The notes beneath the pieces were generated by a model. That model was given only the letters and a program-made list of their open reading frames with translations, did no database searches and had not been told where the DNA came from. The position numbers and the translations under genes were made by a program. A DNA stretch of 64,000 bases. Source: Eledone cirrhosa (Eukaryota). Below, in pieces: positions 7,641 to 55,702 of this stretch (its first letter is position 1; every line of letters begins with the position of its first letter). The DNA lies in NCBI GenBank assembly GCA_964016885.1, contig OZ024749.1, positions 22,878,001 through 22,942,000 of the forward strand. Reading direction: 5' to 3'.

Positions 7641-8275
7641 TAACGAAGGAAATGTGGTAAGGAACCAGGTGGACCATAACGCACCAAAGTACTCAATACT
7701 TGAGGTAGTAGAGTGGGTAATAGGAACCAGTAAGACCCCGACAGCTGAGCTCAAGCCGTTTCGACGGCTAATTCTGGACTAAATGAAAATTTATCCTGGT
7801 ATTTAAATAGCCGATCTTCTCAAGGGGTAATTCCATATATGGTCAAAGTGATTGTCAAAAATCAGTAGTAATTCTGTGGTTGCAAATTAGTAGGGGAGAT
7901 GGTGGCTAAACCTGCCAGTAGGAGAAAGAGGGGAAGGGGTGGAGTAGACCCAATCAAGCGTTGGTAGTGCCAGCTACAGCTGGGCATGAGGTCAAAGAAG
8001 ATACAGGGGAGGGGGAGGGGGAGGAAGTCGGAACGGTAGGTAGAACAATGGGGGGTAGAAATAGGAAAGAAAAAATACTGAGAGTGAAGAAAAGCAAATA
8101 AGTGTAAAGAAAAAAAAAAAAATGTAAAGTAAATTAAATTCAACGACCTAGGTGTCAGGCTATTGTTAGGCGAGAATAAAATAAATAAAGAAAGAAAGAA
8201 GTAAATAAATAAATAAATAAATAAATAAGGAAATAAGTAAGAGAACTAGGTGGGACGGAGAAGGCAAGGACCCTT
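7641..8275 (-). repeat. Inverted pseudo-LTR carrying an 80-nt tail absent from the terminal pLTR
   Basis: Reverse complement of 10379-11001; the terminal pLTR stops at GGTTCCTA (14457, equivalent to 10921). Confidence 0.95.
7735..7828 (-). ncRNA. U3-A8 type I hammerhead (inverted pLTR copy)
   Basis: Reverse complement of 14350-14443. Confidence 0.88.
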
Positions 8276-9716
8276 GTTCAGCAATATGGAGGATAAACGA
8301 GAAACTAAATTCATACAGTTCGACATAGAGAGCTACTATGCTTCAATCACCTTACCGCTACTTACTGCCGCCTTGGACTTCGCCGAAACACTCGTGCCCA
8401 TCACCGACCAGGAAAGAAAAATCATCCTCCACGCCAGGAAGACAGTCTTACTCTTTGACAACTCTAAATGGATAAAAAGAGCTCCCGACTCACCCTTCGA
8501 CGTCAGCATGGGCGCCACGGATTTGGCGGAGGTCACTGATCTTGTAGGATTATTCCTAATAGCCAAACTCATTGATATGTTTCCTGCATTCGGTGGTGGA
8601 TTGTACCGTGATGATGGGCTCCTTACCCTTAAAGGGTACAACCCCAGTAGTACAGATCGGGTCCGGAAACAATTAATCAGATTCTTCCGCGACTGGGGAT
8701 TTAAAATAACCCTACAAACGTCCCTGACCCGAGTAAACTTCCTGGACGTAACCCTCGACCTCGAAAACGACCTGTACTACCCATACAGGAAACCTAATGA
8801 CAATCTGCACTACATCCACCGCCGATCAAACCATCCTAGGAACATCACAAACAACCTGGTCAAAAACATCTCCCTCCGCATATCCCGTTTGTCAGCTAAT
8901 GAGCGGATATTCGATGAACATGCGCCTTATTACAATCAGGCCCTCAAGCGGAGTGGTTTCCGGGAGGAAATATCCTACTGTCCAGCTCCCATTAGCGGAA
9001 CCAGCAGGAGACACCGCCGCTCACGCAATGTAACATGGTTCAATCCTCCCCACAACGCAGAGGTGACTACTCCCATCGGGAAACTATTCTTTAGGCTCAT
9101 TGAAAAACACTTCCCATTACAACACCGCTACCACAACATAATTAACAAAAATACCATCAAACTCTCTTACAGCACTACACCAAACTTCGCACAAAACATC
9201 GTCTCCTCTAACAACAAAAAACTCAACCCCGATGGCAGAAATAACCTAATTAGCAGTGGAGAACCGACCAGGAGGTGTAACTGCCCGGATAGATCTATTT
9301 GCCCACTCGACAATAGATGCAGAGACCGTAATGTGATCTACCAGTGCAACGTGAGGACGGATACCTCCAACAAAGCCTATATAGGACTTACCGCATGTGA
9401 CTTCAAGACCCGGCTATACCAACATAGACATACCTTCCGAAACCCGGCCCGGCGTCACGCCACTACACTTTCGGGCCACATATGGGACCTCAAGGACAAC
9501 AACATCACCTATGATCTCACTTGGAGATTACTGTCCAGAGCCAATTCTTACACGGGAGGACGCCGTCCGTGCAATTTATGCTCGGAGGAAACTTTACAAA
9601 TGCTGTTTTCGACGGACCAACTCCTAAACAAGAAAGATGAACTGGTTACTGCATGTAAACATAGATTGCGTAGGACTTACCTCGCCCTCAAACCCCATAA
9701 TGACCCGGGGGGGTAG
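8276..9716 (+). pseudogene. 5'-truncated but open PLE ORF: RT core, thumb, GIY-YIG endonuclease
   Basis: QFDIESYY, MGATDLAE, GLYRDDGL, CNC-CPL-C, VIY...YIG, CNLC..E, LNKKDEL...CKH; the first residues of the track ORF (8250-8275) come from the inverted pLTR. Confidence 0.93.
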
Positions 9717-10813
9717 ACTAGGGCTATAACACCCCAGTTGCCGATTTTGCAATGGGTAACCCCTGCTTGCCAAGGAAGACGTAAGATCTTCTTTGTATTC
9801 TTTTATCGCTTCCTTTATTTCCTTCCCCCCTCTCTCCTTTGTCCTTCTACCCCAGCTCTTCTCCTTTGTCGGCGTCTTTTCTCGCCCACCTGAGGCTGCC
9901 CTTTGGCCCCATGTAGCCTTAGTACCCCCCCTCCCCTAGTCTTTGATAGACTTGGCGGACTCCGCCCTTTATAGCAGTTGGCTTAGACCCCGGATACTTT
10001 CCCCCTTTTTCCGACCGCTCCCACTATTCTCTGTGCCCTCTATATTTCTTAGTGGCACTTATGCCTTATTTTTTCGTTTCAGTATTTCTTGCTTCGCTTT
10101 TCTTCTGGGCGGGGTGGATTCTGAATTTATTTCTCCGTATTCTACCTTTATTTCGTACGAACTTTCATGTAGCTTGTTTTAGATCTTTTAGAGTTAGCAT
10201 TAGTATATATTTTTCTCGGGACTCAGAATTATTATCTCGTACAAGTTCACTTTGCTGCACTGGGTCGTTGCTGGCCCGGGATGGAAACCTTTATTGTTTA
10301 TTTCGTGGTAGTCTCTTTAGTATGTTGGCCCCTTTTGTTGACCCGTCACCGTATCATTTACGTACTTATACCTCTTAAAAGGGTCCTTGCCTTATCCGTC
10401 CCACCTAGTTCTCTTACTTATTTACTTATTTATTTATTTATTTATTTACTTCTTTCTTTCTTTCTTTATTTTATTCTCGCCTAACAATAGCCTGACACCT
10501 AGGTCGTTGAATTTAATTTACTTTACTTTTTTCTTTACACTTATTTGCTTTTCTTCACTCTCAGTATTTTTTCTTTCCTATTTCTACCCCCCATTGTTCT
10601 ACCTACCGTTCCGACTTCCTCCCCCTCCCCCTCCCCTGTATCTTCTTTGACCTCATGCCCAGCTGTAGCTGGCACTACCAACGCTTGATTGGGTCTACTC
10701 CACCCCCTCCCCTCTTTCTCCTACTGGCAGGTTTAGCCACCATCTCCCCTACTAATTTGCAACCACAGAATTACTACTGATTTTTGACAATCACTTTGAC
10801 CATATATGGAATT

Positions 10814-53680: not shown

Positions 53681-54812
53681 TTTATGAATGTATATATGTA
53701 TGTATATATGTATATATATATATATGTATATATGTATGAATGTATATATGTATGAATGTATATATGCATGTATGTATAAATGTATGTATGTATGAATGTA
53801 TGTATGTATAAATGTATGAATGTATGTATGAATGTATGTATATATGTATGTATTATGTATAGATATATATATAAATGTATGTATATGTATATGAATGTAA
53901 ATATGGATGTATGTATGAATGTATATATGTATGAATGTATGTTTGTATGAATGTATATGTGTATGTATATATGTATGTATGTATGTATGTATATTTATAT
54001 ATATATATATATATATATATATAATTTAAGTAAGTAAGTAAAAAATTTAAAAAAAATTTTTTTAAAAAATATTTTCTTATTTTACGTCTTTTATATTATT
54101 GTTCTGCATTCTCCTGCATTGAACCACCTAGGTACTATGACATAACCTGTGTATTTGCTAGCATGGGCGTGCATCTGTGCGCTTATGTTAGTTGATATAT
54201 TAAATTATCTATATATATATATATATATATATATATATATATATATATATATATATATATATATATATATATATATATATATGTATGTATATATATATAT
54301 GTATGTATATATATGTATGTATAATTATATATTGAGGTACCAGTTTGGAGACTCAGTTAATAGAAAAGGCAACAGTATATCACCTTTATTTAAATATATT
54401 GACACAGGAGATGTGAAAACATCAAGTTGCCAATCTCACAAACTATTTCAAATTAATTTCAGACCAAGTTTAATACAAAATGATCCTCAACATTCGGTGT
54501 TTAATGCCGAACCTTACTGTATATAAATGATGTCCCCCTCAAAATGTATAGACACTTTAACAGCATTCTAATCAAAATGTGTAAAGATCTTTCTGGGAGA
54601 CCCTCTCTCTCTCTCTCTCTCTCTCTCTCTCTCTCTCTCTCTTTCTCTCTCTCTCTCTCTCTCCCTCCCTCTCTCTATATATATAATATGTTTATATATA
54701 TATATATATATGTATATACAAATTTATATATATTTACATATATATATATATATGTATACAATATATATATATATATATATATATATATATATATATATAT
54801 ATATATATATAT

Positions 54813-55702
54813 TTCGTTATTGAATTTGTTTAGCAAGATTCTTTATCTGAAATCGTGTGTTGAAACCGATATTGTTATACTTTGGGAGGGTCATGTTGCC
54901 AATAAGAAACACACGCACCAGTTGTTTCACTTCAATTTATTATATATTTATAAATTTACAAATCTACAAACTTATAAATTTCTGGTTGGTTGGTTGGTTC
55001 CACAACCAGATAGTTGTTTATATATAGTCATAGTCCTTCTGTCACACACTCTGTGACCTCTTCAGTGACTGGGGATTCCTCTCTTTGTGTCTATGCCTTT
55101 CCTTTCTTCTATCCTACGCCATTTTGTTTCTGTGTGTGTGTTGTGTGCTCAGTTTGCGCATGCGCCACATCCGGGTGTCTGTGTGTGTTTGTGTTCATTT
55201 ATCTATTTGTTTATTTATTTATTTATTTATTGTTGGTTGGTTATTTGTTCTATGTGTGTGTGTGTTTTACATTTTGTCCTTAATTGTAAGTTGTGATGTT
55301 GCTGTTCCACTCATATTATCTATTTAATTTTGGTTTTACTTCTTTTATGCTTACTGCCTCTGTAATTTGCCTAAACATTGCGTCTTCTGTGTGTGGATTC
55401 TATTTTTATTTCTATGCTCTCTAATCTACCCCTGTGTTCTATCTTAGCATGTTGGTAGAGCACAGATGATTCTTTATTATCTTGGAGGTCTCGCCAGTGT
55501 TCATTTATTCGTTCCCCTATACTACGAGCTGTCTCACCTATGTACACAATATTTTTGTTTCTACATTGTCCTTCAGTACATCTTATGCTATACACTACAT
55601 TTCTAGTTTTACAGTTAATATGGGGGCTTATTTTACAGGTTATACATTTCTTATCTATACATTTCTTATTGGCAACATGACCCTCCCAAAGTATAACAAT
55701 AT
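54813..55702 (-). mobile_element. 5'-truncated PLE: GIY-YIG fragment ~55300-55660, decayed hammerhead 55026-55070, 41-bp inverted arm 55662-55702
   Basis: [29 protein letters not shown] as in 30351-30905; arm is the reverse complement of 54869-54909. Confidence 0.9.

Follow-up and report, generated by a model that had tools for sequence, protein, structure and literature searches.

Short Penelope-like element copies in Eledone cirrhosa pair two fixed internal ends, consistent with priming from both sides of a (TA)n break

A 64-kb stretch of the 3.0-Gb Eledone cirrhosa genome (the window, whose coordinates are used throughout) holds several families of Penelope-like elements (PLEs) bordered by (TA)n repeats. 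Family A, on which we focused, is represented by a 6.8-kb element (7643-14458) and two short copies, hereafter minis (38011-38122 and 51721-51851). All three have one end at a site S, ..GTTCCTAT (window 10922), and the other, inverted, at a site L, ..CTTCGTTAT (11002), at a spacing of exactly 80 nt, just as an earlier model-made note on this DNA (the sequence-only reading) had described. Positions are hereafter numbered relative to S, with 10922 as 0 and L as +80. In the 6.8-kb element, an inverted L arm of 633 nt (7643-8275, minus strand) begins with the L site next to the left (TA)n, extends back past S and into the 3' untranslated region, and matches both pseudo-long terminal repeat (pLTR) copies at 97%. 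It meets the long S arm (8276-14458, plus strand) at a blunt join with an imperfect CCTT/CCTG match, and that arm comprises a 5'-truncated unit and one whole unit of 3,536 nt before reaching the S site at the right (TA)n. The 80-nt "tail" between S and L (10923-11002, plus strand) is merely the start of the next 3,536-nt repeat unit. It ends in the L site with TAT at 11000-11002, and the S site likewise consists of a TAT (10920-10922, plus strand) common to the (TA)n target and is the putative priming site. The mini at 38011 joins an inverted S arm (0 to -59) to a non-overlapping L arm (+27 to +80); that at 51721 joins an inverted S arm (0 to -60) to an L arm (+6 to +80) through 3 nt of microhomology. 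A solo S arm of 60 nt (-59 to 0; 40157-40216, plus strand) also lies between TA runs without a partner arm, as does a solo L fragment of 37 nt (7328-7364), and several similar solo fragments were seen elsewhere in the genome.

The family-A unit carries one open reading frame (ORF; 11093-13260, plus strand, frameshifted near 12480) for a reverse transcriptase (RT) with a C-terminal GIY-YIG endonuclease (EN), in which we read the motifs YRDD and NVIY..YIG by eye. This protein, together with the partial tandem with pLTRs, the inverted truncated copy and the tail, has the architecture of an EN+ PLE. Searches of the family-A protein returned no Pfam match (GIY-YIG was found in the family E protein), and frames of 717-722 aa with all seven motifs were open at 3 of 13 ORF starts in related copies. 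The sequence-only reading had named the element Naiad, a group defined by an N-terminal GIY-YIG upstream of the RT, a CxC linker and the motif DKA (Craig et al., 2021; PMC8557442; for this and all other papers, our statements cover the sections drawn on here). That label is wrong because the family-A GIY-YIG is C-terminal, and the motif is DKT rather than DKA. The Hydra clade of C-terminal EN+ PLEs is described by RWK, DKT, CxCx5C, CxxC and CxH, the absence of CCHH, and a (TA)n target (PMC8557442). Family A shows RWR in place of RWK, then DKT, a CxCx5C linker, CxxC and CxH, with no CCHH and a C-terminal EN, and 81 of 92 background arms abut (TA)n. Hydra elements are, on the other hand, generally <3 kb (PMC8557442), against the 3,536 nt of the family-A unit, and we found no hammerhead in its pLTR: 9700-11200 gave no Rfam match at E up to 10, and a CTGANGA..GAAA core within 45 nt was found on neither strand of 9601-11200. 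Because of its size and because no hammerhead was found, we describe family A as Hydra-like and do not assign it to the Hydra clade.

Exact family-A end patterns at (TA)n were found genome-wide 24,253 times for L and 18,759 times for S, while the reversed-pattern controls gave 2 and 1 matches, respectively. When ends were considered as short head-to-head pairs (gap limits 40-200 for S-L, 10-200 for S-S and 20-280 for L-L), we counted 14,947 S-L (7,397 forward, 7,550 reverse), 131 S-S and 152 L-L pairs, an S-L share of 98.1%. Independent choice of ends would predict ~7,615 S-L, 3,797 S-S and 3,818 L-L (~50% S-L), and the observed S-S and L-L numbers are upper bounds for their patterns, a few of the matches listed being neighbours or members of another family. 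Reversed versions of the S, L, S-L and L-L patterns matched only 0-2 times, and that of S-S 4 times per strand, compared with thousands of real matches; this geometry is far beyond chance. Family C behaves alike, with 2,425 S-L, 56 S-S and 4 L-L pairs (gap 20-280; its S motif is common to a sister subfamily). Short two-ended copies of families A and C thus carry one S and one L end in opposite orientation in ~98% of cases. The (TA)n runs show no difference in length between the two sides (medians 28 at S and 26 at L, p 0.58).

The same picture emerged from further samples. When the window and 828 kb of flanking DNA were scanned without end patterns, 78 of 81 (TA)n-abutting family-A arms ended at S (28) or L (50); the junctions are therefore not dispersed, dispersal being one of the outcomes that the sequence-only reading had named as refuting it. 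The scan contained 20 family-A pairs, 17 S-L and 3 with an unclassified end, and none S-S or L-L. The background sample of unselected arms consists of flanks of the analysed loci rather than one contiguous genomic stretch. In the 1.45 Mb fetched for family A, window included, families B to E contributed 34 L-S pairs, 1 L-L and no S-S, with 10 further pairs having an unclassified end (2 of these from a related family), and at 30 family-B loci chosen by their L arm, a head-to-head partner was visible 7 times and was S each time (once in the copy of the window itself). In contigs from short reads, loose ends in (TA)n fall at 10922 and at 11002, and the summed depth forms a plateau between 10858 and ~11000 at some hundreds of times its level beyond, a figure that is not a copy number; these contigs stem from four runs of one study, possibly the assembly's own sample, and show joins poorly. 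An E-related family presents the same end (..GGAACCAAATAAATAT) outward on both sides in two places (L152 3475-4422 and L156 1158-2340), which are either neighbouring copies or a family that breaks the rule.

The other window families display the same offset geometry at family-specific spacings. Family B (16821-18312) and its sister subfamily (38945-39351) both have the L end left and the S end right, ~133 nt apart, as had been noted from the letters. The family D mini at 14511-14743 (L end left, S end right) has an offset of ~86-95 nt, one end being ambiguous and TA-like, and family E (48076-50611), with an S arm of ~485 nt left and a long L arm right, has one of ~40 nt; both had been picked out before. 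For family C, the sequence-only reading had given a range of 43-56 nt. The 56 nt stands for the copy at 54813-55702 (long L arm left, 41-nt S arm right), while the 43 nt at 29797-31228 reflects a copy lacking ~13 nt of its subfamily's L end (left, with an S arm of ~160 nt right) and not a third site. Arms overlap in the B, C, D and E copies of the window, unlike in its two family-A minis. Two more family-C or C-related arms were seen: an S arm without L partner at 29350-29436, facing 29797, and a one-armed related copy from 58613 to ~60185, whose L end abuts the left (TA)n and whose opposite end lacks an S arm, and which has RT sequence with DKG and YLDD on the minus strand, read by eye. By motif, the EN and RT fragments of family B (the EN from relatives) look Hydra-like as in family A, and so, probably, does family D, in which a C-terminal fragment of a relative (L207) was read by eye. 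Families C and E appear Neptune-like, with CxxC-type linkers ahead of a C-terminal GIY-YIG, DKG in the diverged C relative at 58613, and a Pfam GIY-YIG with CX2-5CxxC and CCHH-type cysteines in family E. The one-S-one-L rule therefore spans at least two PLE types.

We parsed 158 family-A minis and set 8 aside because of a long middle part that could not be explained or of TA runs inside the copy; 97 S-L, 27 S-S and 26 L-L remained. Distal flanks were distinct in all 150, and the 97 S-L minis have 83 distinct joins. Eight join types were seen 2-4 times each, and in no fewer than five of the six readable groups the copies with a common join belong to different subfamily haplotypes. These insertions are independent in flanks and joins and do not represent one spreading unit, which disposes of the second way in which the sequence-only reading could have failed, shared flanks and joins.

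Arms overlap in 86 of the 97 S-L minis. The earlier description of non-overlapping arms is correct for both window A minis but holds for only 11 of the 97 across the genome sample. The S arm reaches further upstream in 43 minis (by >5 nt in 30), the L arm in 40, and both equally in 14. Among ten long copies, the seven that are two-ended are all S-L, the long arm being S in three and L in four, and the other three have no second family end; kilobase S arms face L arms of 83-642 nt, up to a 4.3-kb S arm opposite an 83-nt L arm. Since either arm may be the longer, neither was copied from the other, and both therefore need a single-stranded template of one polarity, which would point to RNA. Double priming at two family-specific RNA sites, as put forward in the sequence-only reading, is well supported on this ground, that either arm may extend further and either may be kilobases long. 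The core observation is real and genome-wide, and it is better supported than by the non-overlap argument first offered for it.

The joins themselves are heterogeneous: 46 of 97 have at least 1 nt of microhomology (24 at least 3 nt), 19 are blunt and 32 contain inserts. Matches of at least 3 nt occur at 24 of 65 insert-free joins (37%) against 3% in simulation, an approximate comparison as the alignment tolerates mismatches. Joining by microhomology, as originally suggested, accounts for only part of the joins, and a few lie on internal palindromes (14- and 19-nt overlaps). We rejected a collision model in which the L cDNA is blocked at the S primer, as no more than 4 L arms in the 97 minis end between +1 and +10. 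In family C, 36 among the first 100 S-L matches listed measure <=97 nt, and in one copy an S arm of ~250 nt faces an L arm of ~15 nt; the minis of this family often have S arms that end at ..GTTGCCAA (~-30) and are joined to very short L arms via a CAA microhomology.

Family-A arms also share an inner boundary. In the 97 S-L minis, the S arm ends between -53 and -64 in 70 cases and the L arm in 60, and among background arms, which were not selected for length, 49 of 92 end between -54 and -64, with no end falling between -65 and -106. This pile-up is not an artefact of the length limit, because the background arms and the pairs on C1 (47 of 51 S-L pairs among the matches listed are <=231 bp) show the same. 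Position -64 (10858) is the A of TCATTT (10856-10861), 25 nt after TATTTAAATA (at 10833, plus strand); we take these to be initiator-like (Inr-like) and TATA-like motifs, respectively. The motifs, the pile-up and the depth step at 10858 in the short-read contigs suggest that -64 is the 5' end of the sense RNA, where cDNAs would run off. As no hammerhead was found, ribozyme cleavage could not be tied to this position. The predicted RNA fold of -64 to +178 was no better than shuffles (z -1.55). The motif CTGGTTCCT occurs right before S (10912-10920) and again in the tail ~20 nt before L (10975-10983), and is a candidate for protein binding.

Eighteen family-A copies combine an inverted join at the inner end with an arm that passes L, and in 14 of them we found a template jump: the arm stops at -56 to -63 where readable, a position not selected by the search pattern, jumps to +116 to +910 and copies back. 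Two of these carry the same jump twice, which later tandem duplication could also produce. The termini are S and L in 13 of the 18 and S-S or L-L in none; one copy covers a full unit, from -64 to the next L, and another uses a third site (+264), which also ends in TAT. Scarless tandem junctions number 78 in family A, and by these patterns minis therefore outnumber long copies by approximately a hundredfold. Jump acceptors cluster at +171 to +193, at the start codon (+171) (L288, L289, L297, L303 and L304); L297 and L303, which differ in age, share a +175/-59 junction, hinting at a defined RNA 3' end there.

We propose, at a probability of about three in four, that the two 3' ends left by a (TA)n break each prime reverse transcription on sense RNA, S serving one end and L the other, and that the two cDNAs are then end-joined. 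The GIY-YIG EN would first cut both (TA)n strands, as it does in vitro for another PLE. Each 3' end could then pair with UAU in the RNA at S or L, the two sites at which TAT is found. The sites are dealt one per end, probably by an asymmetric dimer on one ribonucleoprotein. As S and L lie 64 and 144 nt from the presumed RNA 5' end, most family-A cDNAs would run off early and yield ~200-bp minis with a ~60-bp inverted repeat. Long copies may arise by priming in a downstream pLTR copy or by a homology-guided jump, with rare non-homologous jumps leaving scars. The cDNA 3' ends would finally be joined with 0-6 nt of microhomology or small inserts, in a manner resembling end-joining.

Several observations weigh against this proposal. 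In vitro, Frangieh et al. (2024; PMC11167929) report that start sites do not differ between the top and the bottom strand; reads taken in bulk for each strand are unable to reveal pairing per molecule, yet neither do they demonstrate it. Ends without a visible partner are numerous, including those of three of the ten long copies, several solo arms, and the window copies at 40157 and 58613, and a target-site duplication is unreadable within (TA)n. Family C has no single obvious run-off point, and the TATA-like box of family A begins 25 nt before the Inr, a shorter spacing than the textbook one. For family A, the case is built on genome sequence rather than on RNA or biochemistry. The single-RNA step is also not proven, because a homogeneous RNA pool suffices, and both arms are short together more often than expected (16 minis against 7.6; near the diagonal, 7 against 1.1), which fits one shortened RNA, deletion at the palindrome centre or some fold-back.

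Subfamily-diagnostic positions nevertheless restrict the source of the arms. The two arms of S-L minis differ at 11 of 452 such positions, compared to a background of 72 of 3,359 and 40% under random pairing, while L-L arms differ at 19 of 105. Arms from different subfamilies (at least two differences) occur in 6 of 19 L-L but 1 of 83 S-L copies (p 1e-4); the L-L set is older, and ectopic conversion could also yield such mixtures. Arm-to-arm gene conversion was rejected as the source of concordance, with 3 rare alleles shared and 68 unshared. Concordance was likewise rejected as proof of a single RNA by a control, jumped segments being equally concordant. These comparisons establish that each event drew on one source subfamily, but not that it drew on one molecule.

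The main rival to double-ended priming predicts similar anatomy, although we consider it unlikely. It posits an antisense RNA with a fixed 3' end near -64 that self-primes into a head-to-head palindrome, which the EN would then integrate by cutting one arm at S and the second at L, combining a self-priming idea (Arkhipova et al., 2013; PMC3846280) with one of EN-mediated resolution (PMC8557442). Head-to-head arms, either of which may be longer, and a one-sided tail would follow here too, the enrichment of microhomology of at least 3 nt is in its favour, and the A/T runs at the -63 join could be poly(A) tails of the antisense RNA. Such runs are, however, present in only 5 of 158 minis, no AATAAA precedes them on the antisense strand, the joins are blunt or have inserts in 51 of 97 minis, and -64 coincides with a sense-strand Inr-like motif. 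Moreover, S, L and the third site all end in a TAT that matches the target, and in vitro it is sense RNA that cut target DNA primes at both tail ends (PMC11167929). Alternatively, L alone could be primed, with the cDNA folding back, copying to S, and being cut or annealed to the other (TA)n end before later deletions. This would account directly for strict S-L pairing and arm concordance, and the few joins on internal palindromes and seven near-symmetrically truncated minis are in line with it. It needs the S arm to be contained in the L arm, whereas S reaches further in 43 of 97 minis, 11 have arms that do not overlap, kilobase S arms stand opposite short L arms, and family C has its very short S-L copies and the one with a ~250-nt S arm and a ~15-nt L arm. 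Fold-back as the main route is thus largely refuted, and we regard it as very improbable.

We give little weight to a scheme in which both ends are primed with S and L chosen independently, S-S and L-L products being lost from the genome or the assembly as unstable palindromes. Those products would indeed be fuller palindromes running into self-complementary (TA)n, and the lack of start-site strand bias in vitro (PMC11167929) agrees with free choice. But an inverted repeat of ~60 bp is likewise found in S-L minis, S-S and L-L copies that are nearly perfect have persisted and are present in the assembly, a loss of >95% would have to strike both classes almost equally (131 and 152), and long copies with diverged interiors follow the S-L rule as well. 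Least credible is that the minis are a MITE-like (miniature inverted-repeat transposable element) or duplicated unit derived from one or a few founder insertions, as their ~200-bp inverted-repeat look and the recurring join types might suggest. The distinct flanks, the 83 joins among 97 copies, the different haplotypes behind recurring joins, and termini that differ (S and L) and are not inverted copies of each other refute this for the sampled minis.

Double-ended priming has a close parallel in PAc, the Poseidon PLE of Anolis carolinensis, whose target-primed reverse transcription in vitro starts at the two tail ends on sense RNA, with both target strands cut and extended (Frangieh et al., 2024; PMC11167929). 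Family A resembles PAc in having two internal sites, the putative RT starts, that bound the tail and an AT-rich target. For PAc, cutting and extension of both strands and a predicted dimer are reported (PMC11167929), while here the same features are proposed from genome sequence. The family-A and related sites differ in a 3-nt TAT match to the target at each site and in a spacing of 40-133 nt by family, versus 30-40 nt. The sections of the PAc report drawn on give no strand difference in start site, pairing per insertion, account of the inverted pLTR or run-off point. In other PLEs, an inverted copy and a tail are present often or optionally at one end (PMC8557442; PMC3846280), and the anatomy, the (TA)n target and the scarless tandem units are as described here. 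In those two papers, EN-mediated resolution is held to produce the tail, regarded as optional, and self-priming on antisense RNA to produce the inversion (PMC8557442; PMC3846280), whereas we find the tail near-obligate, one per two-ended insertion.

In L1 twin priming, both 3' ends of a break prime on element RNA (Ostertag and Kazazian, 2001, as described in PMC2246262). Head-to-head inversion and microhomology joins are common to both cases, the anatomy of family A fitting such priming without displaying it. The second L1 site is reportedly variable, with parts that barely overlap, and twin priming is said to be a minority event. In the present families, both sites are fixed and internal and the arrangement is the default outcome. 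The L1-like picture of one RNA split between two primers does not fit because the same ~60 nt is usually copied twice; adjacent non-overlapping cDNAs with a variable second site are not what we found, given the 86 overlapping minis and the 4 L arms ending just past S.

Priming near the RNA 5' end followed by run-off is also known from retroviral minus-strand strong-stop DNA, and end-to-end template jumping from R2. The family-A minis and jump copies would combine the two, with priming near the 5' end, run-off, and jumps from one RNA 5' end to another RNA 3' end. In contrast to retroviral strong-stop DNA, the primer would be chromosomal DNA rather than a tRNA, two cDNAs would be made, and the stopped products become integrated as ~200-bp minis.

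Two start sites, extension on both strands and a one-sided tail have thus been published, while the strict coupling of S and L and the run-off products appear new. Our literature search, which did not cover older subscription literature, found no statement of strict pairing, run-off or mini-copy dominance, and the sections drawn on of PMC13282606, PMC8969392 and bioRxiv 10.64898/2026.07.22.740005 add nothing further on S-L pairing. PMC8557442 treats the origin of inverted PLE pLTRs and of the one-sided tail as an open question, and PMC11167929 does not validate the steps that follow initiation. Dual priming would likely explain these long-puzzling inverted ends and the tail, and the one-of-each rule weighs against simple fold-back. 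A 98% rule over ~15,000 independent insertions, borne out in a second family belonging to another PLE type, allows a precise prediction, at the level of single molecules, to be put to the available in vitro assay. It also shows that inverted-repeat elements of ~200 bp form a large class of retrotransposition by-products, which annotation could take for MITEs, and the approach offers a reading of priming sites and RNA 5' end directly from a genome.

We also hold, tentatively and with doubt slightly outweighing belief, that double-ended priming could be the default mode of PLE integration across clades. An asymmetric RT-EN dimer would sit on one RNA, its two protomers acting at S and at L, respectively, across a double-strand break from each other, and would copy this RNA repeatedly by jumps from its 5' end back to its 3' end. 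If so, the inverted pLTR, the one-sided tail, the scarless tandems and tens of thousands of "double strong-stop" minis would be outcomes of one reaction, and PLEs would do without an ordinary second-strand 5' junction of the LINE (long interspersed nuclear element) kind. PLE RTs are the sister group of telomerase RTs, and internal priming at a short match is therefore of wider interest.

The window holds further repeats besides the PLEs. More short inverted-repeat elements lie at 15096-15235, 18677-18785 and 51131-51299 and are not bordered by long (TA)n. At 60990-64000, an ORF of 699 aa with a CCHC-like knuckle but no Pfam match is followed by the start of an APE-like ORF; this is the 5' part of a LINE, presumably L1/Tx1-like. 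A general repeat search of the window gave an output dominated by microsatellites. The SINEs (short interspersed nuclear elements) of the window look cephalopod-like, and one SINE-like repeat of ~190 bp is present in many copies (528-648, 4193-4588, 17757-17945, 24529-24715, 25970-26860, 45620-47290 and 57460-58510), one of which, at ~17757-17945, sits within the family-B element.

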